DNA of 24,186 bases, from positions 1 to 24,186 of IMG/VR virus record IMGVR_UViG_3300025396_000073, one strand, 5' to 3'. Below, piece after piece: positions 1 to 24,143 of the stretch. A program made the position numbers and the translations under genes. Numbering within the stretch: the first letter of the stretch is position 1; every line of letters begins with the position of its first letter. A model generated the notes under the pieces. It did no database searches, was not told the DNA's origin, and worked only from the letters and a program-made list of their open reading frames with translations. Origin of the DNA: a virus. Taxonomy: Duplodnaviria; Caudoviricetes.

Positions 1-3000
1 GCACCTGCATTAATTACATATTCACCATTTGAAAGCATTGCTGGAATTGAATCAGATGTTGAAGTTCCTGGGCCAGTAATATCTCCGCCAGTTGCTTTTG
101 TTGTAACTGGTATAACAGAGTTATTTGGGCCATACCATTCTGACCCACCTTTTGGATTATATACCAACCTATACTTTTGTCCACTTATTTTATCGTTCCA
201 GACTGTTCCATTTTTAGCTTTTATATCAGCAGTGCTATTTAAAGTTGGTGGGGTTCCTACTCTTTTACCTGAATCTGGACTTGTATTTAGTGTTCCGCCT
301 GCTGCTATCTTAGCCTGAAGATCTGAAATTTGTTTATTTAAAGCTGCTAAAGCTGACGTGTTATTGTTAGTTGCTGTTGTTTGAGCTTGAGTTACTGCAG
401 CATTTGCTGCATCTAACGCCGTTCTATTTGCGTCAGCAGCCTGCTGTGCTTTGTCAACATTTGTTTGAAGGTTAAAGTCTTTTGTTGTTCCTATAAGTTG
501 TTGCTGTAATAACTGAGCTTTAAGGTTATCTCCTGTAGCCTGGGCCATTAAAATTTGATTTTTTAAATCTTCTTTTGTTGTAGCATAATTTGTATTTTGA
601 GTTTGTTGTTTTTGCAAATCTTGCAATGCTTTAAGATTTGCATCAAGAAGTTTTTGTTGTTTTGTTAATCCTGAGACATTATTGCTAACTGCTGCGTTAT
701 TTGCCGCTGTTGTTACAGCAGAACCACTTTGCAAATCATTTGCTTTTGCTTGAAGATCGTTTAGTTGCTTTTGTAATCCAGACTTTGTTTTCATTGCAGC
801 TATTGTGTCTTTAACTGTTTTACCAGAAGCTAAATCTTTTGACAGGGTGTCAAAATTGACTGTTGCCCCTGAAGTTAATGCACTTAGTGCAGTAACTACG
901 TCTGACCCACTAAATCCGCCTTTTGACTGCATTAGTGTTATCAGTTGTATTGCACCACTATTACCTAGCTGGGTGAAGTACTGTAGTAGACCTGCTACTT
1001 GCTGTGCAGATGATGCAGCTGACAAACCAATTGCTTTTATTGCATTTTGGACATTTGTTAACGAATTTGAATTTAATGCTGCACTTGTAATTTGTCCTAT
1101 TACTTGTGCAAATTGCTTTGCATTTGGCAAAGCTGCATTTAAAGATGCTTTCATTGCATCAATTTGATTTGAAATTGGTGTTAATGCAGAACCAGCATCT
1201 TTTCCTCCTGCTGTCAATATCAGCTGCTCTAGTTGTTTTGCTTGGGCTGCAGATATTCCATTAACTGCTATTTGAAGGTTTGCAAACTCAGCAGCTAACT
1301 TAGCAGCGGAACCTGAGTCTCCAGCATCTTTTACCTGCTTTATAACCAAGGCCAACGGGTTATTCGTTGGAAGAGTTTTTACCATTGACATAAAATTAGA
1401 AAGTTGCGTAGTTGTATATGTAATGTTTTTACCCAATGCAACTATACCATTTGATACTGAAGCTGGAGATGTAGACATAACAACGTTAAATGAAGTTAAT
1501 AGAGATTTAGTATCTGCAACTTTACCGCCCATAATTTGTACTGCATCAGCACTTGAAGTGAAATCAGCTTGTGCTTCTGCTGCATGTTGTTTTTCTGCAG
1601 CCATTAATGATTTAATGCCACCTGTTACAAGACTTATTGCAGCTCCCGCCGCCATACCCCAAGGACCGAAGCCTGCTCCCATGCCAGCACCAGACATAGC
1701 ATCCGTGATTAAACTACCTCCAGGCAGTTTATTAAGGAGCGGGGAAGCAATTTGTGATGCTGTTGTTATGCCCATACCAACACCCATACGGCCCATCATT
1801 CCCATACCAGAGAACTTAGACATCATTCCTCCTAGGCGGGAATTAGCTCCAAAAGCTCTACTAAATATTGACTGTATCTTTGATTGACCTGCAGATCCAT
1901 TAAGTCCTTCATCAACACCTTGATGTATTTTTTGTGCAGCATCTCTTCCTTCTGTCCATAAAGATGGAGCTGTTTCTTCCATGCCTTGTTTAACGCCAGC
2001 AAAATAATCTTTTCCAGTTTTAATTCCTTTTTTAGAAGGAGAACGCTCTTCAAAACCTTCTCTTGTTGCAGCATCTGTTTTTACTGCAGTTTCTCTACCA
2101 TAGGCTGGTATTCCTTTAATTCCTAGACTTTCTGCGGCGGCTAAGTTTTCTGGTTTATCATCAACAAGACCATTAACTCTATATTTTTCTAATAGCTGCT
2201 GAAGCTTTTGGCCTTTATATACATCGTCAGGTTGATTATCTCCCTTGCCACGCATGACTAACTCATCAAATGGAATATCATTTGCTTTAAGCCAAGCTAG
2301 TGTTTGAGCTTGATGATGCTCTGTTCTTGCCGTAAGGATAACAATTTTGTTGCCTTGTTCCTTTAACTTATTTAATCTTGCAACTTCAGGACCAATAGGT
2401 TTTGCACCTACTGTTGAATCTATCCATTTTTCACCTGGACCATTAATTCCCTTAGTCTCTGCAAGTGTCTCATCTATATCATAAGCTACAGCCTTTGGAA
2501 GCTTTTTACTTGTTTCTGCACCTTTGATGTCATATGCACTTTTTGTTGAAAATAAATTTTCCTTTTGACTTGGTGTTAATTTATCTAAATCTTTATATCC
2601 TTGTAATTCTTTACTTTCAGATAATGGAACAAAATTTCCTGGAGTTTCTTCAAAGAATGCATTTCCTGTTGCAGATTTTCTGCCTGATCTTAAACCTCTT
2701 GTTCCCGCAATTCTTGATAAAATGCTGCCAAAGCTGCTTCTTCCTGCAGTTTGAGTTTGATTAAGAGTAGACATAATTGGTCCATTTGACATACCTGTTT
2801 CAGCTTCAAGTGTGCCACCATATACCTTACCTTCTTTTTCAGCTCTTTCTTTTGCCTTTTTACCGCCAAATATATAATTAGCTTTTGTTGTTTCTAAAGT
2901 TTTTAGGAAGTCTTCAAACGCTGCATTAATTTTTGGCTCAAATGTTGCCATATCTACGCCGAGTGCTTTTGCTTGATCTTTTAAGTTTTGAAGAGGATCT

Positions 3001-5390
3001 ATGCCTGTAGATTGTACATCTCTATATCCTTGAGCAATTTCAGCTCCCGTTTTTCCTTTATTTGTTGATTTTGTTCCTTGATTAGTATTAGCATGCATCA
3101 AAAGCATCAGGCCTCTTACAAGTGCTGTTGCTGGCCCTTCTAATCCTGTTGAATCTTGTCCAACATTTGCATTAAAGTTTGCCAACTCTTCTGGCGAGTA
3201 TTCTTCGGCGGCATGACCACGCTCTACCTTTACTCTTTTACCAAATTTTCCAACTCCAAATGCATGCTGTGGCAAGTTGCCTTGTATCATAGCATTAATA
3301 AATGGTGCATATTTTTCTGCTTGCTTTGTAGGAATAACTGCTTCCCCGCCCATTAATAGTGCAGGATATACATCGCCTTGTGCAGGATTTCCTGGAACAT
3401 ATCCGCCTGTAGCCATTCCTGGTAATAATAATGTACCTGCTGCTGCTTCGCCAGCTGCTGCTGCTTCCACTCTACCAAGAAGTGATGTGTCTGTACCAAC
3501 TTGGAAATTCATATTTAGTGCTTCAAGACTTGTAATTAATCTTTGAAGTGCTGCATTGAGTGTATCTACTGCTGTAACATTTTCAAGAACACCAGTGTTC
3601 ATAGCATCCATTGCTACTTTTGCTGCTACCCCCGCTGGGGTCATTAAGTCTTTCCACTTTCTTGTTCCATCAATCATGCCAAGGATTGCATAGCCTACCT
3701 TCATTCCTTGACCCATAAGGTTTGCAAGCAAACCAGTAATCATGATAATTGGTCCAGCCAAAACTCCAAGTGTTAGTAATATACCCAGACCATTTTTAAT
3801 TGGTCCTGGCAATTTATTAAAGAAATCAGCAATCTTTTGTCCAAAATCAATTAACTTTGTTCCAACTTCAAGAATCTTTTGTCCTATTGGATATAAATCT
3901 GCTTTAAGTGTTTCAATAGCTCTTTGCCATTTAGCTGTACTTGACTCAGTTGCTTGAGCCATTTCTTGATTTGCAAGTCCCGCCAACTGTGAATTAGTAG
4001 CACCCGCTACCTTTAATGCATTTTGAGTTTGAGATCCAACTTTTCCAAAGTTATCAAGCAATGCTGAAATACGTGCGAATTGGAACTTGCCAAAAAGCTT
4101 TTCAATAAGTTGTTCTTGAGCCATCTTATTTAATGGTGCAAGTGCTGACTGTAAAGCCATAAGCATTTGAGTAGGCGTTCCAGCATTTCTAATATTTGTT
4201 AAGTTGATTCCAAAAGACGCAAATTCTTTATTGGCAGCTGCTGTTGGTGCAATGATAGATGCAAATGCTGATTTAAGTGCGTTAGCAGCTTGAGCGGCTG
4301 GTACACCAGCTTCACGCATTGCAAGCAACATAACAGCGGTATCTTTATATCCTCCACCAAGCTGGGCCATAATAGGTCCAACACGTGGAATCGCATCAGT
4401 CATATCTTGGAGTGACATTGTTGTTTGCTTCTGCATAGATGACAAGAAGTTAACAGCATTACCTAAATCTGTTGAGCTTACCTTGTAAACATTTTGTAAA
4501 GAAACAATTGCATTTGTTGCTTGAGTAGCATCAATTGCTCCCAGCTTAGAAAGTCTCTGTGCCTGATATGTTACATCCAAAAGCTTTTGTCCTTGTATGC
4601 CCATAGCTGCAAAGTTAGCTGCGACCTGTACTGTTGCAGACTGAGCAATACCCATTTGTTGAGCAACTTGCTTTCCTAGGTTAATTACTTGATTTGAAAT
4701 AGCATTAAGTTGAGCTTGTGATGGAGGTGTAAGACCTTCACCATAAAGTCTTTGAAGTCTAGTAAGCTCTGTATTTACCGCTTTAAATGAAGCAACTGCC
4801 TGGCTACCAAACAAGATGGCGGGCATAGAAAGACCAACAGTAAGCTGACGTCCTGCCCATTGTGTATTCTTACCAAAATTAATAAGTTCTTGTGAACCAT
4901 TCTTTACTGCAAGATTAAATATGTTTTGCTTAGCTGCAGCTATTTCTACAGATTTAGCAATAGGATCAATTGTGGTTGGTGTGAATACACTGTATACACC
5001 CTGCTTTGTAATATCTTGCTGGACTATAGAATTATTTAATTTAACTTGCTCTTGAGCAAGAGCATTTACTGAAGCTTTAGCAGAAGCTGATTTTCCAGTT
5101 ATAATGCCAAAATATTGACCTAGGCTCAGCTGACCTTTTTGTAATGCCTGGCCAAACCTTTCTGTTTCAGAAGTTAGTTGAACAGTTTGTTTTGTAAAGT
5201 TACCACTAGATACCAGTGCATTACTAAATTCTGATTGAATAGTTTTAAGTTGATTTGCAAGACCATTATTTAGTCCAATGCCAGCAATGCTCTTTTGAAG
5301 TGAAGTTACCTGAGTTTGAAGGGCTTTAAGTTGATTATTAACGCTACTAAAATCACCAAGTGCGGTAATCTTTAATTGTATATTAGCCAC
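1..5390 (-). CDS. Tape measure protein, truncated at the window edge (>=1796 aa), with internal cargo region including a HAD phosphatase domain
   Basis: Manual translation from GTG at 5390 (SD-like AGGAAGGGTG upstream) gives MANIQLKITALGDFSSVNNQLK... No stop was found before base 1, and no ORF in the track ends in this frame. It has an Ala/Gln/Leu-rich helical sequence, a TP901-like TMP core (NFGKNTQWAGRQLTVG...MREAGVPAAQAANALKS...LFGKFQFARISALL), and hydrophobic segments at about 3715-3790 and 1620-1830. It lies directly after the tail chaperones. Confidence 0.95.
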   Translation of the reverse strand, partial: MANIQLKITALGDFSSVNNQLKALQTQVTSLQKSIAGIGLNNGLANQLKTIQSEFSNALVSSGNFTKQTVQLTSETERFGQALQKGQLSLGQYFGIITGKSASAKASVNALAQEQVKLNNSIVQQDITKQGVYSVFTPTTIDPIAKSVEIAAAKQNIFNLAVKNGSQELINFGKNTQWAGRQLTVGLSMPAILFGSQAVASFKAVNTELTRLQRLYGEGLTPPSQAQLNAISNQVINLGKQVAQQMGIAQSATVQVAANFAAMGIQGQKLLDVTYQAQRLSKLGAIDATQATNAIVSLQNVYKVSSTDLGNAVNFLSSMQKQTTMSLQDMTDAIPRVGPIMAQLGGGYKDTAVMLLAMREAGVPAAQAANALKSAFASIIAPTAAANKEFASFGINLTNIRNAGTPTQMLMALQSALAPLNKMAQEQLIEKLFGKFQFARISALLDNFGKVGSQTQNALKVAGATNSQLAGLANQEMAQATESSTAKWQRAIETLKADLYPIGQKILEVGTKLIDFGQKIADFFNKLPGPIKNGLGILLTLGVLAGPIIMITGLLANLMGQGMKVGYAILGMIDGTRKWKDLMTPAGVAAKVAMDAMNTGVLENVTAVDTLNAALQRLITSLEALNMNFQVGTDTSLLGRVEAAAAGEAAAGTLLLPGMATGGYVPGNPAQGDVYPALLMGGEAVIPTKQAEKYAPFINAMIQGNLPQHAFGVGKFGKRVKVERGHAAEEYSPEELANFNANVGQDSTGLEGPATALVRGLMLLMHANTNQGTKSTNKGKTGAEIAQGYRDVQSTGIDPLQNLKDQAKALGVDMATFEPKINAAFEDFLKTLETTKANYIFGGKKAKERAEKEGKVYGGTLEAETGMSNGPIMSTLNQTQTAGRSSFGSILSRIAGTRGLRSGRKSATGNAFFEETPGNFVPLSESKELQGYKDLDKLTPSQKENLFSTKSAYDIKGAETSKKLPKAVAYDIDETLAETKGINGPGEKWIDSTVGAKPIGPEVARLNKLKEQGNKIVILTARTEHHQAQTLAWLKANDIPFDELVMRGKGDNQPDDVYKGQKLQQLLEKYRVNGLVDDKPENLAAAESLGIKGIPAYGRETAVKTDAATREGFEERSPSKKGIKTGKDYFAGVKQGMEETAPSLWTEGRDAAQKIHQGVDEGLNGSAGQSKIQSIFSRAFGANSRLGGMMSKFSGMGMMGRMGVGMGITTASQIASPLLNKLPGGSLITDAMSGAGMGAGFGPWGMAAGAAISLVTGGIKSLMAAEKQHAAEAQADFTSSADAVQIMGGKVADTKSLLTSFNVVMSTSPASVSNGIVALGKNITYTTTQLSNFMSMVKTLPTNNPLALVIKQVKDAGDSGSAAKLAAEFANLQIAVNGISAAQAKQLEQLILTAGGKDAGSALTPISNQIDAMKASLNAALPNAKQFAQVIGQITSAALNSNSLTNVQNAIKAIGLSAASSAQQVAGLLQYFTQLGNSGAIQLITLMQSKGGFSGSDVVTALSALTSGATVNFDTLSKDLASGKTVKDTIAAMKTKSGLQKQLNDLQAKANDLQSGSAVTTAANNAAVSNNVSGLTKQQKLLDANLKALQDLQKQQTQNTNYATTKEDLKNQILMAQATGDNLKAQLLQQQLIGTTKDFNLQTNVDKAQQAADANRTALDAANAAVTQAQTTATNNNTSALAALNKQISDLQAKIAAGGTLNTSPDSGKRVGTPPTLNSTADIKAKNGTVWNDKISGQKYRLVYNPKGGSEWYGPNNSVIPVTTKATGGDITGPGTSTSDSIPAMLSNGEYVINAG
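2105..2498 (-). other. HAD-superfamily phosphatase domain (PNKP/PseT 3'-phosphatase-like) within the TMP, about aa 965-1096
   Basis: Motif I PKAVAYDIDETLA (DxD at 2480-2472), motif II KIVILTAR (T at 2333), then TLAWLKANDIPFDELVMR, motif III GDNQPDDVYK (K at 2216), motif IV LVDDKPENL...LGI. Confidence 0.9.
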
Positions 5391-5393
5391 TTA

Positions 5394-6010
5394 TCACCCT
5401 TCCTGACTCATAAAACCAAGTCCTTCGTTTATACCAAAGCCTTCGTCTCTTGCAGTTTTTGCATCAAGCAAAGCTTTAACATCTTCTGGTTCTTTATCTT
5501 GTTCATCCAGATCAATGCCCTGCATTGCTGCCAGGAACTTCCTTTCACGATGTTCTCTATCTCTAGCTGCAGTTAATGTTGCCATCAACTCATCTAACGA
5601 TAGGTTGCTTTCAAGCTCATCATAATTTTTCCAATGACCGAGCAAGAAAACTTCGGACTCAAGGGAGGCTAGATCTAGTTCGTCCCAACTAGAGCTGCTC
5701 CCAGTAGGTTTGGGTCGTTAAGCTTCAAACCTCCGCAAACTTCAAGAATCTTCATCATTGTAGGAACTTCAACGGTTTCTTCAAACAAATCTTTGTTAGT
5801 TGCTAGTGGCGACTTTGATGCCTCTAGGCACACCATTGCTGCTTTGATGAATACGTCCATTGCTGCATCTTCAGATTCATTCTCTGGCAGTTCCATTTCC
5901 TTGACAATATCCATAAACTTCTTTAGCTGCTTAATAGGCAGCGGTTTTAGAGTAACAGTCTCGCCGTTACTTAGTTCAATCTCTACTACATCATATACTG
6001 TTGTTGCCAA
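5394..6010 (-). CDS. Tail assembly chaperone, long form via -1 programmed frameshift (about 205 aa)
   Basis: The -1 frame opens just before the slippery heptamer and reads PTGSSSSWDELDLASLESEVFLLGHWKNYDELE... to TGA at 5394-5396. The listed ORF 5394..5645 is its C-terminal part. Confidence 0.8.
5675..6010 (-). CDS. Tail assembly chaperone, short form (111 aa)
   Basis: Small acidic ORF between major tail protein and TMP, with AGGAG SD. This is the lambda gpG-like position. Confidence 0.85.
   Translation of the reverse strand: MATTVYDVVEIELSNGETVTLKPLPIKQLKKFMDIVKEMELPENESEDAAMDVFIKAAMVCLEASKSPLATNKDLFEETVEVPTMMKILEVCGGLKLNDPNLLGAALVGTN
5708..5714 (-). promoter_or_regulatory. -1 ribosomal slippery site C CCA AAC
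   Basis: X XXY YYZ heptamer in the correct phase (gaC CCA AAC, D-P-N). It lies inside the short window where the 0 and -1 frames are both open. Confidence 0.8.
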
Positions 6011-12793: not shown

Positions 12794-13135
12794 TTATTTT
12801 ATAATACCGCTATTGATTTGGATGACTTTTTTGACATCCGCCCCTTCTGGTTTGTATTCTAATCCTGCCGTTGATGGAGGCGGGGTGTTTGGATTGTGAT
12901 CTTCTATGTTAGAAACATAGGGAGTTTGAATATGTGAATCTGGAGCTACATTTGGACTAGCCATAGAGTTGTGGGATACAAGACCACCTGTTACAAATCC
13001 TACTGCTACATAGGCTAAATGTGATATATCATGCTGAAATCCAGTAGCTGCCCATGTTGAAAATGAACTTGTCATTGCAATTCCCAGGGTTTTAGCATCA
13101 AAAATATTGAACTTAAAATGATGTTTTAGGCTCAT
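12794..13135 (-). CDS. Putative holin/membrane protein
   Basis: Two short hydrophobic segments (TLGIAMTSSFSTWAATGF; LAYVAVGFVTGGLV) and a hydrophilic tail. ATGA-coupled to the endolysin. Confidence 0.5.
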   Translation of the reverse strand: MSLKHHFKFNIFDAKTLGIAMTSSFSTWAATGFQHDISHLAYVAVGFVTGGLVSHNSMASPNVAPDSHIQTPYVSNIEDHNPNTPPPSTAGLEYKPEGADVKKVIQINSGIIK

Positions 13136-13998
13136 AGTGAACCCTTTAATGTATCATAAACTATTTGTGGAACTGCTCCTGCTTTTACTATAATTCCCGC
13201 CTTTTTATCAAATATAGCAAGAGCTGCTTGAGTTTGAGTATTCATAGTTCCTGTGGCGTATTTTGCTACAAGAAGTCCTTTTTTAACAAGAGCTTTTTGA
13301 ACTGTTAGAACTGCATCATTAGTTTGACCCAAGGCAAAAGACTTTGATGTTGTAGGAAATGGTGGTGCATAAAAAGCTGTCGGAGTTGGTGTTGGAACAA
13401 CTTTAGCTGAACTGGTTGTTGCTGCTGTACCATGCAATGCTGCTGCCGTTGCTGCTGCGGCTGTCCCAGTGGCTGCTACACCTGCTGTTGCCTTCTTGCT
13501 TGTGACACCCTTTGAAACAGGTTTTAATGGCACTGGATACCTAGGTCTTACAATTGCCATGACATAAAGATATGGGCGATGCTCTCTATAACATCCGCCG
13601 CCATTTGCTGCTGCTCTTGTATTTTGATCACCAGTATTAAAACCAATTGTTGTTAATCCATCTGCAGATGCTGCCTCAACAATTTCAACATGCTCTGCTA
13701 CGCCAGTTCCCCATGAAAAGAAAACAAGGTCTCCAGGCTGTGCTTGATATTTATTTACAACTAATCCTTGGCGTTGAAACCAATTTAATCCTGCAGGACA
13801 ATACGCAAAACCTTTTGGAGTTTGTGCTGCAACAAGACTAGACAAGCCTACTTGTGCAAAACACCAACTAATTCCCATTGCACAATAACTAGCGTTTGGA
13901 ATACCATACCAAATTCCGTATGGATTTTCATTAATAGGTCCTTCAATAAAACCTATCTGGCTTCTGGCAACATTTAATACATCTTGTGCTGTTGCCAC
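13132..13998 (-). CDS. Endolysin: CHAP amidase/peptidase, Ala/Thr linker, peptidoglycan-binding domain
   Basis: ARSQIG.EGP, YCAM (C39), PGDLVFF, HVEIV (H103), TIGFNT. C-terminal LGQTNDAVLTVQKAL...G.MNTQTQAAL..F...G is PG_binding_1-like. Confidence 0.88.
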   Translation of the reverse strand: MATAQDVLNVARSQIGFIEGPINENPYGIWYGIPNASYCAMGISWCFAQVGLSSLVAAQTPKGFAYCPAGLNWFQRQGLVVNKYQAQPGDLVFFSWGTGVAEHVEIVEAASADGLTTIGFNTGDQNTRAAANGGGCYREHRPYLYVMAIVRPRYPVPLKPVSKGVTSKKATAGVAATGTAAAATAAALHGTAATTSSAKVVPTPTPTAFYAPPFPTTSKSFALGQTNDAVLTVQKALVKKGLLVAKYATGTMNTQTQAALAIFDKKAGIIVKAGAVPQIVYDTLKGSL

Positions 13999-18865: not shown

Positions 18866-19915
18866 TTATCCACCAACTTGTGAACGAGTATAACGAAATA
18901 TTACAACCCCTGAACCACCAGAATAACCCGAATTTGAATTGCTTGTAGTACCGCCGCCGCCAGCGCCACCTCCAGTATAGGCAACTCCATTGCTTCCATT
19001 GACAAGTACAGCTCCCGTAGAGCTTCCAGAAGCACCTAAGCCGCCGCCGCCAGAACCGCCAGGTCCGCCTGTAAGAGTTCCTCCAGAATAGTTGTTGGAT
19101 ATAAATCCTCCGCCGCCGCCTGCAAAGTAATAAGTTCCACTATGATTATCACCAACTCCAGTTGCTGCTCCCCAAGACGAATATGCTGAAGATCCAGTTC
19201 CTCCAGATGCTCCTGTAGTTTGGTAAGAACTTGAATTTGCTCCAGCGGTGCTTGAACCGCCGCCGCCGCCTGCTGCATAGTTTCCAGGAGTAGAGCCGCC
19301 AGTAAAACTTCCACCGCTATTTCCTTGATTTAATGTACCAGATGCTCCATTCCAAGTACTGCTATTAGTTACAGCTCCGCCGCCGCCAGATCCACCAGTT
19401 TGTGCCAAATAAGTTGTTGATCCTCCTCCAGAAGAACTGTATCCTCCTCCTAGGGCTGTAGTTAAAGATAAGCCAGATACGCTTGAATTGCCACCATTTG
19501 ATCCTACAGAACCACCAGCCCCTACCGTTACCGTGTAACTATTTCCTGCAGTAATAGTGGTAGCTGTATATCCAAGAAGTCCTCCTGCTCCTCCACCTCC
19601 AGAACAATAAGCACCATTACCCCCGCCGCCAGCAACTATAAGTATGTCTGAAATTAAATTTCCACCACTTACCGATAAAGAGCCAGTGCTTGTAAAAGTT
19701 CTATAATAATATGTTGTGTCAGAGGTTAATGTTCCGCCAGTTACTACTGGTGGCAAGCCTTGCAATCCAGCGCCTACCCATCCAACAGTTGAATATGTAA
19801 TCAATTCTTGTAATGTTGTATCATAATATTCTTGTCCAGTATATGGAGATGCAGGACGTGATGATGTTGGTCCTATTGCATAACTTGAATTAGCTAAATC
19901 TCTTGCACGTGTCAT
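18866..19915 (-). CDS. Glycine-rich putative fibre/adhesin, paralogue 4
   Basis: MTRARDLA, RPASPYTGQEYYDTTLQ, VTGGTLTSDTTYYYRTFTS, polyglycine runs, end GGSGVVIFRYTRSQVGG. Confidence 0.75.
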   Translation of the reverse strand: MTRARDLANSSYAIGPTSSRPASPYTGQEYYDTTLQELITYSTVGWVGAGLQGLPPVVTGGTLTSDTTYYYRTFTSTGSLSVSGGNLISDILIVAGGGGNGAYCSGGGGAGGLLGYTATTITAGNSYTVTVGAGGSVGSNGGNSSVSGLSLTTALGGGYSSSGGGSTTYLAQTGGSGGGGAVTNSSTWNGASGTLNQGNSGGSFTGGSTPGNYAAGGGGGSSTAGANSSSYQTTGASGGTGSSAYSSWGAATGVGDNHSGTYYFAGGGGGFISNNYSGGTLTGGPGGSGGGGLGASGSSTGAVLVNGSNGVAYTGGGAGGGGTTSNSNSGYSGGSGVVIFRYTRSQVGG

Positions 19916-19928
19916 TTAATCTCCTGTG

Positions 19929-19947
19929 TATATTTTATCATTCTTTT
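19929..19947 (-). repeat. Duplicated 19-nt intergenic block containing TGATAAAAT (copy 1)
   Basis: TATATTTTATCATTCTTTT (+ strand), identical at 22023-22041. Confidence 0.8.
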
Positions 19948-19949
19948 GA

Positions 19950-20927
19950 CTACCCGCCTACTTGTGCTCTGGTATATCTTACAATTACTATTCCCGAACC
20001 GCCTGTGCCACTTGTATATTGATAATTCCAAGGTGAATCTCCTCCACCGCCGCCGCCAGTATTTGTCATTCCATTAGCTGAACCATTCCAAGCATTACCG
20101 TATCCTCCACCACCAATTCCAGGATTAGCTTGTGAATTCCAGCCAACTCCGCTTCCTCCTCCAGCATAGTAATTTCTATCACCTGTTGAAGTCGCACTTG
20201 CAAAATCTGGAAAACTTAAACCATTTCCTCCAGCAATGCCACTAGCCGCTGCTCCTGCTCCACCACCACCTCCAGAAAACTGTGGATTGCCAGCAGCTCC
20301 TCCATCGCCATCATTACCTTGTCCAGGCGTTCCAAAACCATGTAAGTGACCCGCAGTAAAATTATTAAAAGAGGTTTCGTAAGCTCCGCCACCGCCACCA
20401 GATCCGCCATCTATTCCAATGGTAGCATCTGATCCATTAGATATATATCCAGTGCCTCTTCCTCCTCCTATTGCAGTTAAACCATTAAATATACTATTAT
20501 TTCCTTGAACATTTATTGCACCACCTGAACCAACTGTTACAGAATATGTTCCTGCAGTAATTAAAGATGATGTTGAATAAATTAATCCTCCAGCTCCACC
20601 GCCGCCATTTAAATAAAAATATCCTCCACCACCGCCACCGCCAGCTACCATTAAAATATCTGCTGTAACTCCGCTATTAGAAACAACTAAAGAAGATGTT
20701 GATGTAAATGTGCGATAATAATAAGTTGAATCAGAAGTTAATGTTCCTCCAGATAAGCTAGGAGTAGGGGGAGCAATATTTACTGGAACCCATCCACCTA
20801 AAGTATAATTAAGCATTTGTTGCAAAGTTGTATCATAATGTTTTTGACCAGGATGTGGGTTAGCAGGACGATTAGAAGTAGTATTAATAGATCTTGCTGA
20901 TTGTGCCATATCTCTAATGCGACCCAT
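19950..20927 (-). CDS. Glycine-rich putative fibre/adhesin, paralogue 3
   Basis: Same architecture: RPANPHPGQKHYDTTLQ, GGTLTSDSTYYYRTFTS, end GGSGIVIVRYTRAQVGG. Confidence 0.75.
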   Translation of the reverse strand: MGRIRDMAQSARSINTTSNRPANPHPGQKHYDTTLQQMLNYTLGGWVPVNIAPPTPSLSGGTLTSDSTYYYRTFTSTSSLVVSNSGVTADILMVAGGGGGGGYFYLNGGGGAGGLIYSTSSLITAGTYSVTVGSGGAINVQGNNSIFNGLTAIGGGRGTGYISNGSDATIGIDGGSGGGGGAYETSFNNFTAGHLHGFGTPGQGNDGDGGAAGNPQFSGGGGGAGAAASGIAGGNGLSFPDFASATSTGDRNYYAGGGSGVGWNSQANPGIGGGGYGNAWNGSANGMTNTGGGGGGDSPWNYQYTSGTGGSGIVIVRYTRAQVGG

Positions 20928-20933
20928 TATTTA

Positions 20934-22007
20934 TTACCCGCCAACTGATGCTCTTGTATATCTTACTATTACTACTCCAGAACCACCGTTGCCAGCTCTC
21001 CAAACCCCACTAACGTAAACGTCTGGGTTTCCTCCGCCACCTCCACCAGTGTTTGCTAATGCATCTACAATTGAAGAGGTTGTTGATGTATTACTTGAAT
21101 ACTCTCCTGAGCCTCCTCCGCCATAACCTCCAGTAGCACGGGTATTTGATTTAACAGATCCTCCACCACCGCCGCCTGCATAATATACTGTTCCAGAAAC
21201 ATTTTGTCCAGTTGAAGTTGCTAATCCCCATGCAGAATATGCTGAAGTTCCATTTCCTCCTGTTCCTGCACCGCTTGAAGTACCATTATTTCCAGATACT
21301 CCTGCTCCGCCGCCACCGCCTGCATCAATACTGTTGTACAAACCACCATTTCCTCCAGAATTACCATAAACAGTATATCCACTACCCGTGGTTTGATTTG
21401 ATGAACCGCCTGCTGCCGTGCTTGCACCGATATTGTACATTGCTCCGCCGCCGCCTGAACCACCTGCTGCTCCTGCTGAGCTTACACCTTTATTGTTTTG
21501 ATAAAGTCCTCCGCCACCTCCGCCAATAGCTTGAACTAGGGAGCCAAAACCACTATTATTTCCATTGCTTGCTTGTCCTCCACTTTGAGCATCTCCAGCA
21601 TAACCAGTTGCTCCTGCACCAACAGTTACTGAATATGATTGTGGGGTAAGTGATTGAGAATTTATATAAACAACTCCTCCTGCACCTCCACCACCGCCAT
21701 ATCTTCCACCAGATCCGCCTCCTGCAACTTGCAAAATATCTGCAGTTAAAGATTGACCAGAGACTATTAAATTTGAAGAAGATGTAAACAATCTATAATA
21801 ATATGTTGCATCTGAAAAAAGTGTTCCTCCAGTAACTACTGGTATTGCAGATGTTCCTGCTGCCACCCATGTGCTTAAAGAAGTATAAGTTAAAAGTTGT
21901 TGTAAATCTGTATCAAAATACTCTTGCCCTACAAATGCATTAGATGGACGGGATGCAGTATTACCCTGTGGCATTGATGACATTGATAAATCTCTAGCTC
22001 TTGACAT
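20934..22007 (-). CDS. Glycine-rich putative fibre/adhesin, paralogue 2
   Basis: MSRARDLS, GNTASRPSNAFVGQEYFDTDLQ, end GGSGVVIVRYTRASVGG. Confidence 0.75.
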   Translation of the reverse strand: MSRARDLSMSSMPQGNTASRPSNAFVGQEYFDTDLQQLLTYTSLSTWVAAGTSAIPVVTGGTLFSDATYYYRLFTSSSNLIVSGQSLTADILQVAGGGSGGRYGGGGGAGGVVYINSQSLTPQSYSVTVGAGATGYAGDAQSGGQASNGNNSGFGSLVQAIGGGGGGLYQNNKGVSSAGAAGGSGGGGAMYNIGASTAAGGSSNQTTGSGYTVYGNSGGNGGLYNSIDAGGGGGAGVSGNNGTSSGAGTGGNGTSAYSAWGLATSTGQNVSGTVYYAGGGGGGSVKSNTRATGGYGGGGSGEYSSNTSTTSSIVDALANTGGGGGGNPDVYVSGVWRAGNGGSGVVIVRYTRASVGG

Positions 22008-22022
22008 TTAATCTCCAATTAA

Positions 22023-22041
22023 TATATTTTATCATTCTTTT
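22023..22041 (-). repeat. Duplicated 19-nt intergenic block containing TGATAAAAT (copy 2)
   Basis: Identical to 19929-19947. Both copies are followed by GGAGATTAAATG. Confidence 0.8.
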
Positions 22042-22043
22042 AG

Positions 22044-22949
22044 TTACCCGCCTACTTGAGTACGAGTATATCTAACTACAATAATTCCTGATCCACCAGC
22101 ACCTGAAATTGGTGCATTACCTGATGCTGCTGCACCTCCGCCACCGCCGCCGCCAGTGTTAGCAGTTCCTGCTGTTGCATCTGTTCCAGTTGAAAATCTG
22201 TATGAGTTACCTCCTGCACCGCCTCCGCCATAACCTCCTGCTGCACCTAGCAGATCCCATCCACCTCCGCCACCGCCGCCGCCATAATAATAGCTTCCAC
22301 TAACATTTTGTCCTGTTGAAGTTGCTGAAGATATTGAATTTATAGTTGAGCTTGTATATCCATTTGATCCCGCTACTGGAGATGAACCTGTTCCATATCC
22401 ACCCATTCCTCCAGATCCTGCTGGAGAAGTAGCGATTCCTCCTGCGCCATTTCCACCTGCAGAGCCTCCTGGACCACCTGTTGCTAATCTAGCATTTATT
22501 GAACTTGTAGACCCAGCAGAACCTGATCCACCTTGATTAGCATAAGATCCACCAGCACCTATCGTTGCAGAATAAACATTTGGAGTTAAAGTTACAGAAG
22601 ATGTTAGAGAAGGAACTCCGCCAGCTCCGCCGCCGCCGCCTGGGCCGCCGCCGCCAGAACCTCCTCCTCCTACAATAAGTAAGTCTATAGTTAATGGCAT
22701 TGTTGATATTACTAAATTAGAAGTTGATGTAAATGTTCTATAATAATAAGTTGAGTCTGAGGTTAAAATGCCTCCTGTTACTACAGGTAATGGTTTTTGA
22801 TTTACTGGAAACCATCCTCCAGTTGTATAAATATAAAGTTGTTGTAGGGTCGTGTCGTAATATTTTTCCCCAACAAATGAATTTGATGGGTATGAAGAAG
22901 AATTACCAGATAGTCTGATTGTATGAATTAGATCTGTTTTTCTTGACAT
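22044..22949 (-). CDS. Glycine-rich putative fibre/adhesin, paralogue 1
   Basis: YPSNSFVGEKYYDTTLQ, VTGGILTSDSTYYYRTFTS, end GGSGIIVVRYTRTQVGG. AGGAGG SD. Confidence 0.75.
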   Translation of the reverse strand: MSRKTDLIHTIRLSGNSSSYPSNSFVGEKYYDTTLQQLYIYTTGGWFPVNQKPLPVVTGGILTSDSTYYYRTFTSTSNLVISTMPLTIDLLIVGGGGSGGGGPGGGGGAGGVPSLTSSVTLTPNVYSATIGAGGSYANQGGSGSAGSTSSINARLATGGPGGSAGGNGAGGIATSPAGSGGMGGYGTGSSPVAGSNGYTSSTINSISSATSTGQNVSGSYYYGGGGGGGGWDLLGAAGGYGGGGAGGNSYRFSTGTDATAGTANTGGGGGGGAAASGNAPISGAGGSGIIVVRYTRTQVGG

Positions 22950-22958
22950 ATTTCCTCC

Positions 22959-24143
22959 TTAAAGCATTTGATAAGTTTGTACTGAACCATTTCCACCACG
23001 ATTATTACCATTTCCTGGTGATCCCGCCCCTACTGCTCCCGCAACTGTTCCATCTGCTTGTACACCTGAAGCTGTTATACTTCCTGAATTTGAAAAACCA
23101 TTTTTATACAAAATAACAATTGCTCCGCCACCAGAACCACCGCCATAAGTTGACATACCACGACTTCCGTTTGCTTGAATACTTCCAGTAGAGCCAACGG
23201 TCAAAGTTCCACCAACAACTAAAAATAGCAACCCGCCTGTTCCATCTTTTGCAGCATAAGAACCTAGATTAGAATCCCAGTTATTTCCATCATTCCATGT
23301 GGCTCCATGTGGATTTCCTGCTCCACCGCCACCATATCTATTGTATTGTGTTCCATAAATAGCACCACCTGAAGATCCCTGTCCACCTGCTCCACCATAA
23401 GCAGCACCGCTGCCACCAGCAGAAATACCGCCATTGTTTGTATTATATCCACCACCTCCTGCACCGCCAGAAAAACAAGTTCCCGCAGCACCGCTTCCTG
23501 GATAAATATTTGAGCCACCTGCCCAATAACCACCACCTGCTGCTCCGCCACCAGTAAATCCAGCTGCGGCATCTGGGGGAGTAACTCCACCATTTCCATT
23601 AACATTTGTTGTAGCACCTGCTCCTGCAGATCCAGATCTTGAAATTGTTACAACCTTATAATTTGTTCCAGATCCGCTCTTTTGATTTGCAATAGCAGCT
23701 CTTGCTCTATTTCCTGTTCCGTTAAAAGTTGATGCAGACATTGTTAAAGAATCAGTTCCACCTGAATAAGCAAATCCATATTGTAAACCTGAAGAGCTTA
23801 CTGCATTATTATCTGATGCTCCCGCAATTGTTGGGTTTGCTGCTGCACCTCTTGCAGTCATAGATAAAGTTCCATTAATTGTACAATCACCTTGAACATA
23901 TATAAACATTCCTCTGCAAGGCTGATCTGGAGTAAGTGAACCAGTTGAAGTTATATTTAAAGATTTAAATTGAAGCATGACCATATCTCCGTCATATGAA
24001 CCATTTTTATTTTCAACTGCCTGTTGAGTTGCAGAACTATATATAGCATTTCCACTTGAACCATCACCTAAATAGTTTCCAAATGTTGTGTAATTAAGAG
24101 ATGCGGATGAAAATCCAAAGAACCCTTGGAATGCACCCGTCAT
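22959..24143 (-). CDS. Glycine-rich protein of a second type (putative fibre tip/adhesin)
   Basis: GDGSSG...FIYVQGDCTINGTLSMTARG...GGLLFLVVGGTLTV...SIQANG...GGGSGGGAIVILY...GSITASG. Lacks the N- and C-terminal motifs of the four paralogues. Confidence 0.7.
   Translation of the reverse strand: MTGAFQGFFGFSSASLNYTTFGNYLGDGSSGNAIYSSATQQAVENKNGSYDGDMVMLQFKSLNITSTGSLTPDQPCRGMFIYVQGDCTINGTLSMTARGAAANPTIAGASDNNAVSSSGLQYGFAYSGGTDSLTMSASTFNGTGNRARAAIANQKSGSGTNYKVVTISRSGSAGAGATTNVNGNGGVTPPDAAAGFTGGGAAGGGYWAGGSNIYPGSGAAGTCFSGGAGGGGYNTNNGGISAGGSGAAYGGAGGQGSSGGAIYGTQYNRYGGGGAGNPHGATWNDGNNWDSNLGSYAAKDGTGGLLFLVVGGTLTVGSTGSIQANGSRGMSTYGGGSGGGAIVILYKNGFSNSGSITASGVQADGTVAGAVGAGSPGNGNNRGGNGSVQTYQML

Follow-up and report, generated by a model that had tools for sequence, protein, structure and literature searches.

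We analyzed a 24,186-nucleotide stretch of the genome of an uncultured freshwater tailed phage (Caudoviricetes; IMG/VR record IMGVR_UViG_3300025396_000073, positions 1 to 24,186), hereafter the window, in which the gene for the tape measure protein (TMP) encodes an embedded phosphatase domain of the HAD family. The window contained a virion operon on the minus strand: genes for the portal, the prohead protease, the capsid and head-tail proteins, two small chaperone-like open reading frames (ORFs) and the TMP. The TMP gene followed the chaperone-like pair and preceded ORFs of 186 and >1,164 amino acids (aa). Its frame ran from position 5390 to <3 without a stop across 1,796 codons and left the window at its left edge; the full-length protein, obtained from locus L001, had 1,995 aa. 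An earlier sequence-only reading of the window had described this frame as absent from the ORF list; being open-ended, it leaves the window, but it is listed once open-ended frames are included. Profile matches (PF10145 in Pfam, E-value 3.3e-25; phrog_10030 in PHROG, E-value 2.1e-95) together with its position in the tail operon identified the product as a siphophage TMP.

An HAD phosphatase domain lies in frame within this TMP (Table 1). The Pfam family PF25109 (HAD_PNKP) matched aa 965-1091 with an E-value of 7.7e-13 and 49.2 bits, against a cut-off of 27.6; phrog_415, annotated as polynucleotide kinase, covered aa 961-1117 (E-value 2.1e-26), and phrog_505, with the same annotation, matched as well. 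Up to an E-value of 0.1, the only PDB sequence matches of the domain were Pnkp1 (4xrp, 5.8e-9) and T4 Pnkp (5uj0 and 1ltq), and these full-length matches to solved HAD structures support a predicted Rossmann-like HAD fold. The claim of the sequence-only reading that an intact PNKP-related domain with all four HAD motifs is embedded in the TMP was thus confirmed, with D971, D973 and T975 in motif I, T1020 and R1022 in motif II, K1059 in motif III and D1077-D1078 in motif IV. HAD phosphatases with a DxDxT motif act through a phospho-Asp intermediate in a Mg2+-dependent reaction. The catalytic residues of the T4 enzyme given by Das and Shuman (PMC3592404), Asp165, Asp167, Ser211, Lys258 and Asp278, aligned with D971, D973, T1020, K1059 and D1078; all were kept, Ser211 as Thr, and so were the equivalents of Arg213, Arg246 and Asp254. 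Across the TMP-borne HADs that we collected (see below), the catalytic D, D, T and K and the Mg-binding D were invariant in six of six, as was the DxDxT pattern of motif I.

Table 1. Features of the TMP gene and its product; positions are those of the window.
Feature	Position	Strand	Basis or remark
TMP ORF	3..5390	minus	GTG start; 1,796 of its 1,995 aa encoded in window
HAD phosphatase domain, aa 965-1096 (132 aa)	2103..2498	minus	Pfam and PHROG profile matches, PDB sequence matches
HAD motif I, D971-I-D973-E-T975	2466..2480	minus	T4 Asp165/Asp167
HAD motif II, T1020-A-R1022	2325..2333	minus	T4 Ser211/Arg213
HAD motif III, D1055...K1059	2214..2228	minus	T4 Asp254/Lys258
HAD motif IV, D1077-D1078	2157..2162	minus	T4 Asp277/Asp278
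First slot module, aa 713-945, His726...Asn770 domain	2556..3254	minus	Alignment, motif count, AlphaFold model
Left slot border, ~55-aa linker module ATGG..PG...GE.VI, aa 656-712	3255..3425	minus	Recurrence in related TMPs; drop in identity to L010/L011
Right slot border, conserved SPS(K) motif, aa ~1114-1153	1932..2051	minus	Recovery of identity to L010/L011
Hydrophobic block ahead of slot, aa 531-561, candidate membrane-inserting segment	3708..3800	minus	Kyte-Doolittle peak 2.34
Gly/Met-rich apolar stretch after slot, aa ~1190-1262	1605..1823	minus	Read from sequence; hydropathy below threshold in this TMP
PF10145 PhageMin_Tail, aa 240-434	4089..4673	minus	Pfam; within conserved N-terminal TMP scaffold
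Second ATGG linker copy near TMP C-terminus, from aa 1765	3..98	minus	phrog_23013 at aa 1766-1816

The continuity of the fusion was inspected in assembled contigs, rather than raw reads, from four runs other than the source (X5-X8). One 3.6-kb contig of X6 extended over window positions 1200-4188 with 17 substitutions and no gap; contigs of X5 bridged each edge of the HAD separately, X7 bridged the edge at 2105, and X8 covered the stretch in part. No joints were listed in the contigs of X5-X8 placed on the window. Because an independent contig spans both edges of the domain, an assembly chimera was ruled out as the origin of the fusion. The same HAD-TMP fusion recurred in L002 (99% identity), L003 (73%) and P0004/P0005 (66%).

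The distribution of the domain was surveyed in 199 loci, which gave 196 TMP ORFs, 171 of them reaching 600 aa past the conserved block, grouped into 103 clusters at 90%. The HAD recurs in other TMPs, but in just 3 of the 103 clusters, including the study phage and P0005, which had entered the set as a HAD match; the nearest TMPs, L010, L011 and L012 (84-87% identical in the conserved block), lack it. Comparison with these relatives delimited a sharply bounded variable slot at aa ~711-1100: identity to L010 and L011 fell from 63-83% to about 10-30% past aa ~711, and recovered at aa ~1101 in L010 and ~1161 in L011. Of 105 TMPs examined, 73 had the ATGG linker of the left border at aa 650-760 (reversed-decoy matches, 0), and 62 of the 73 linker-bearing proteins had a hydrophobic block on both sides. 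TMP lengths among the relatives ranged from about 1,640 to 4,970 aa.

In a tree of the N-terminal block of 38 TMPs chosen from the set, the study phage grouped with the HAD-less L011, L156 and L155 (support 0.998), far from the HAD-bearing L134 (= L003) and P0005. Forcing the three HAD-bearing scaffolds to be monophyletic cost 404 log units with 20 taxa (approximately unbiased test, p 5e-40, for which IQ-TREE warned of too few replicates). The scaffolds with the HAD being not monophyletic, the module has been exchanged between scaffolds, in either direction, or lost repeatedly. Two observations concern the slot borders. Many unrelated contigs (loose ends in X5, X6 and X7) matched the window only along a ~34-nt stretch of the ATGG..PG linker DNA, positions 3390-3423, and then diverged, making this stretch a possible recombination point for slot exchange. 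The strain differences of L002 and X6 clustered right after the slot, at aa ~1165-1187 (window 1605-1900), which suggests a patch of recent recombination beside the right border.

The HAD was the best-conserved region of the TMP relative to L003, with 73% identity, while identity between the two proteins across their aligned N-terminal part (1,397 aa) was 41%. Its ratio of nonsynonymous to synonymous differences (pN/pS) was 0.30 (95% bootstrap 0.21-0.42), versus 0.56 in the scaffold block, 0.85 in the module before the HAD and 0.83 in the C-terminal part; these values come from a single pairwise comparison of four TMP regions by Nei-Gojobori-type counts. Synonymous divergence (dS) was 1.31 in the HAD and 1.0-1.7 elsewhere, near saturation throughout. 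A recent horizontal gain was rejected as the cause of the 73% identity, and since the synonymous sites of the HAD are as diverged as those elsewhere in the TMP, the identity reflects purifying selection: the domain is under selection.

Directly ahead of the HAD, the slot holds a first module with a His...Asn pair. In an alignment of 22 slots (MAFFT, 11-27% identity), on which the grouping with other His...Asn domains rests, the Asn was invariant and the His nearly so. A small-residue-His motif was found in 58 of 73 slots, the count being 25 +/- 4 after shuffling and 13 for a control region; these numbers give no clean probability since the pattern was drawn from the same related sequences. The AlphaFold model of the module (predicted local distance difference test, pLDDT, 68) placed His726 on a strand and Asn770 on a helix following a second strand, the order strand-His, strand, helix-Asn known from His-Me nucleases; the module is possibly His-Me/HNH nuclease-like. 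A fold search with this model gave no match at Z >= 5 (the best, Z 4.5, root-mean-square deviation 3.2 and 92 aligned residues, was an unrelated protein, and helical parts filled the list). No Pfam nuclease matched any of 25 segments, PDB profile searches gave helical or chance matches only, and the ESM Atlas returned scores <0.9 for the study TMP and low-recognition matches for a relative. Iteration from the module's own sequence gathered 2-4 sequences, one iteration admitting a reversed decoy. L003 carries the same first module (E-value 4.6e-18). In P0004/P0005, by contrast, the same HAD is preceded by another His module, which makes the HAD a sub-module in its own right. In some slots (L039, L041, L048, L050, L072 and L075), the small-residue-His motif stood near the end instead of the start, as if the module were circularly permuted.

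A profile built from three TMP-borne HADs was compared with 1.84 billion representative sequences and gave 5,294 matches at E <= 0.001, of which the best 150 were taken. Within these 150, the best match outside the query set was P0007 (3,607 aa, E-value 5.5e-21) and the fifth was P0011 (4,971 aa), both of them PF10145 TMPs; the others, 22 of which were scanned, were by length mostly ~300-aa kinase-phosphatases or ~140-aa solo domains. The six TMP-borne HADs formed one clade among 152 domains (FastTree, support 0.988), in a set that was gathered with the TMP-HAD profile and in which L032 has a long branch. No close stand-alone donor gene turned up among proteins of 75-240 aa (46 candidates yielded one match, at 37%), the best phage-isolate matches to the HAD stayed at <40%, and a scan of metagenome contigs gave only two copies, both identical.

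Other modules occupy the same or equivalent linker-bounded slots in relatives, and are labeled here by motif alone: kinase-like for what we take to be a DxDxxxxN...DxG signature, and ADP-ribosyltransferase-like (ART-like) for the presumed R, SxS and ExE set. Iterative profiles over 105 TMPs, with no decoy matches, separated the kinase-like modules into groups of 9 and 2 proteins and the ART-like modules into groups of 6 and 1. P0007 and P0011 contain arrays of modules bounded by GG linkers, with His modules, the HAD, kinase-like and several ART-like modules, plus M23 in P0011. Two or three tandem ART-like modules per TMP, none recognized by Pfam, were seen in L025, L029/L162, L031/L167 and L034/L161. 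The TMP of L032 has a more distant HAD (E-value 8.4e-4); at L032:9504-11165 this divergent domain, with DLDDT as motif I, stands immediately before a kinase-like module, so that one slot may hold a phosphatase/kinase pair. Among 60 C-terminal TMP parts scanned, the HAD was found in 2, M23 in 2, NlpC/P60 in 1 and LysM in 4.

The conserved TMP block matched 178 of 50,697 phage records, including 127 Streptomyces, 31 Gordonia, 10 Rhodococcus and 6 Tsukamurella phages, and for this reason the host is probably actinobacterial; the best 25 of the 178 matches were all Streptomyces phages (32-36% identity). The 39-kb contig of the study phage was 36% complete according to CheckV. All 24 runs listed for the sequence were freshwater metagenomes, seven of them containing at least half of the sampled words and four being possible sources of it, and no RNA dataset was among the listed runs. 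Elsewhere in the operon, the small ORFs before the TMP (window 5394-6010, minus strand) resembled a tail-assembly chaperone pair. The -1 frame of the second ORF is already open ahead of the stop of the first, and the junction CTAGT|TGG was kept in all five close loci where it was located; no canonical slippery heptamer was present there. A CHAP-domain endolysin-like gene (PF05257; window 13132-13998) and a small hydrophobic ORF (12794-13135), both on the minus strand, lie between the portal and prohead protease genes, and five paralogous, glycine-rich ORFs (301-394 aa) stand in tandem at positions 18866-24143 of the same strand.

Siphophage TMPs fill the tail tube and leave it at infection. 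For phage JBD30, the TMP is described as filling the tail, and a DNA channel is proposed to arise from its expulsion (PMC11445458; on TMPs see also PMC8718954). The HAD, which is in frame, has a complete catalytic set and occupies a variable cargo slot as an optional module, would accordingly be released into the host at infection with the ejected TMP. The slot would end up on the cytoplasmic side; its place between the hydrophobic block (aa 531-561) and the Gly/Met-rich apolar stretch is compatible with a cytoplasmic loop without proving one. As three folded HADs exceed the tail lumen of ~40 Å, the domain would be packed unfolded in the tail and then refold in the host, or be cut off. Once inside, it may take phosphates off the 3' termini of nucleic acids or nucleotides ahead of phage gene expression, a substrate suggested by its closest characterized relatives. 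Virion delivery is the most plausible reading, and we regard the predicted delivery of an active enzyme into the host as probable; that the tail-carried HAD acts there specifically as a 3'-end phosphatase is put forward tentatively, at a little less than an even chance.

Several observations weigh against this proposal. The HAD is optional and dispensable, given the few clusters that carry it. No P-loop kinase (AAA_33 or another P-loop family) was found in the TMP by Pfam, and all four PNKP-length matches scanned (285-305 aa) have one at the N-terminus. Arg176 is essential in T4 Pnkp; the equivalents of T4 Arg176, Arg252 and Arg279 are Ile982, Gln1053 and Lys1079 in the TMP HAD, while Arg occupies these columns in 59, 47 and 59 of 60 PNKP-length matches. 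The 5'-deoxynucleoside monophosphatase (5'-dNMP phosphatase) Dmp of phage T5 has the same DxDxT/TAR/DxxYK/DD order and matched end to end, with a probability of only 16%, an E-value of 0.0016 and 20% identity; the motifs therefore do not settle the substrate. The labels of the accompanying modules gained no significant support in Pfam, NCBIfam or PDB profile searches: the best PDB profile match of the kinase-like module (model pLDDT 73) was Snf1 kinase at an E-value of 0.37, and the ART-like profile had none. Lastly, the phosphatase domains of T4 Pnkp and Pnkp1 work as dimers (PMC4411300), and a few injected copies may not dimerize.

The T4 Pnkp/PseT C-terminal 3'-phosphatase (1ltq, 5uj0), Pnkp1 (4xrp) and PF25109 share with the TMP HAD the DxDxT motif and a minimal cap. 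Compared with T4 Pnkp, the TMP domain keeps the equivalents of Asp165, Asp167, Ser211 (as Thr), Arg213, Arg246, Asp254, Lys258, Asp277 and Asp278; it differs in having no N-terminal kinase, in being embedded in a structural protein and in the three replaced arginines. Neither a partner kinase nor an RNA ligase was found in the partial genomes G001 (36% complete) and G002 (27%), and a PF09511 search gave no match. Lacking the kinase half and the three arginines, the domain is related to T4-type PNKP, yet not a member. The parallel drawn by the sequence-only reading holds for the catalytic residues and fails for the kinase half and the three arginines, departures which it overlooked together with the optional nature of the module and the His...Asn domain directly before it. 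Its proposal of end healing, including that of tRNA, is for the same reasons only one candidate, and the departures leave room for other substrates, although the sequence still favors the substrate class of PNKP-type 3'-phosphatases.

The main rival keeps the delivery and changes the substrate: the HAD would be an injected phosphatase of mononucleotides or signals, like T5 Dmp, with dNMPs or related nucleotides (e.g., the ones that Kongming or Metis senses) or ADPR-1P as targets, possibly acting downstream of the His...Asn domain, should this be a nuclease. Counter-defense by phage nucleotide phosphatases has precedents: according to a review, T5 Dmp defeats Kongming and an ADPR-1P phosphatase of a phage reverses aRES (PMC13728456). 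The loss of three PNKP-typical arginines, the missing kinase and the end-to-end motif match with Dmp favor this alternative, as does the His...Asn module directly preceding the HAD in the study TMP, L003 and P0004/P0005. Dmp and the host-DNA degradation gene A1 both lie within the first-injected DNA of T5. Dmp itself is a pre-early, anti-Kongming enzyme that acts at the very start of infection, but it is expressed from injected DNA, whereas the TMP HAD would be carried as protein. The similarity to Dmp is, however, weak beside the E-value of 5.8e-9 for Pnkp1, and the first module is only a candidate nuclease. His...Asn modules are also common without any HAD. We judge this alternative rather unlikely, if worth keeping in view.

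It is also conceivable, though unlikely, that the phosphatase is real and acts in the producing cell, the late TMP precursor being cut, or the domain working, before tail assembly, so that it never enters the next host. The dimensions of the tail speak for this, the folded domain being too large for a lumen of ~40 Å (PMC8718954) in which the JBD30 TMP density measures ~20 Å (PMC11445458), and TMPs are often processed, as in JBD30 and T5, with the linker modules as potential cleavage sites. Against it, the slot is internal and flanked on either side by scaffold that is retained in relatives, and fusion to a TMP would bring little gain to a late cytoplasmic enzyme, yet a TMP-specific HAD clade persists. 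Very unlikely, in turn, is a passenger without a needed catalytic role, whether an insertion that the TMP tolerates or a module with a phosphate-binding or structural function; the rarity of the HAD and the flexible length of these TMPs would suit it, but among the four TMP regions compared the domain shows the lowest pN/pS, at near-saturated synonymous divergence, and its catalytic residues are invariant. An assembly chimera or chance motif match has practically no likelihood: the source is metagenomic and the evidence consists of contigs instead of reads, but an independent contig crosses the region, the fusion is found in L002, L003, P0004 and P0005, and the match exceeds the Pfam cut-off.

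If virion delivery of the HAD is true, the tail ruler would be a delivery route for enzymes of the first minutes of infection, with the conserved phosphatase swapped among phages at fixed linkers alongside kinase-like and ART-like modules. A broader version, which we offer as a speculation of low probability, is that the TMPs of aquatic, probably actinobacterial siphophages constitute a modular protein-injection platform; the study phage would inject nuclease and phosphatase as one linked cassette, a counterpart in protein form to the pre-early pair A1/Dmp of T5, which would cut nucleic acid and destroy defense-triggering nucleotide or 3'-phosphate signals before any phage gene is read. The idea is directly testable, as the 1,995-aa TMP is of ordinary size, similar in length to the TMPs of cultured relatives among the Streptomyces phages, and its 132-aa domain is easily assayed. 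No HAD phosphatase within a TMP was reported in the titles or abstract openings returned by a full-text literature search, whose coverage excludes subscription journals.

Enzymatic passengers of TMPs are not new. The TMP of mycobacteriophage TM4 has cell-wall motifs. That of T5, pb2, contains a peptidase motif according to PMC11445458. In these proteins, as here, a catalytic passenger resides within the TMP, and relatives of the study TMP also bear M23, NlpC/P60 and LysM near the C-terminus. The passengers known so far have the cell wall or the TMP as their target, whereas the HAD sits in a central variable slot and would need a phosphorylated, probably cytoplasmic substrate. The polyvalent proteins and MuF-fused effectors are similar in that enzyme domains are strung on a virion protein with proposed delivery along with the DNA (Iyer 2017, PMC5512222); their carriers are head proteins and the carrier here is the tail TMP. 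The main text of that work reports enzymes fused to MuF and to further virion proteins and contains neither 'tape measure' nor 'phosphatase', although its supplements might list such architectures (PMC5512222), and in the available text of Iyer 2021 the PKN-HAD appears only as kinase-fused or stand-alone. Polyvalent proteins join several disparate enzymatic domains in one virion-linked protein; the study TMP has one assigned enzyme and one further module, with kinase-like and ART-like modules in its relatives by motif alone. Judged from its sequence, the HAD phosphatase as exchangeable TMP cargo is a variant of the known virion-borne enzyme passengers.

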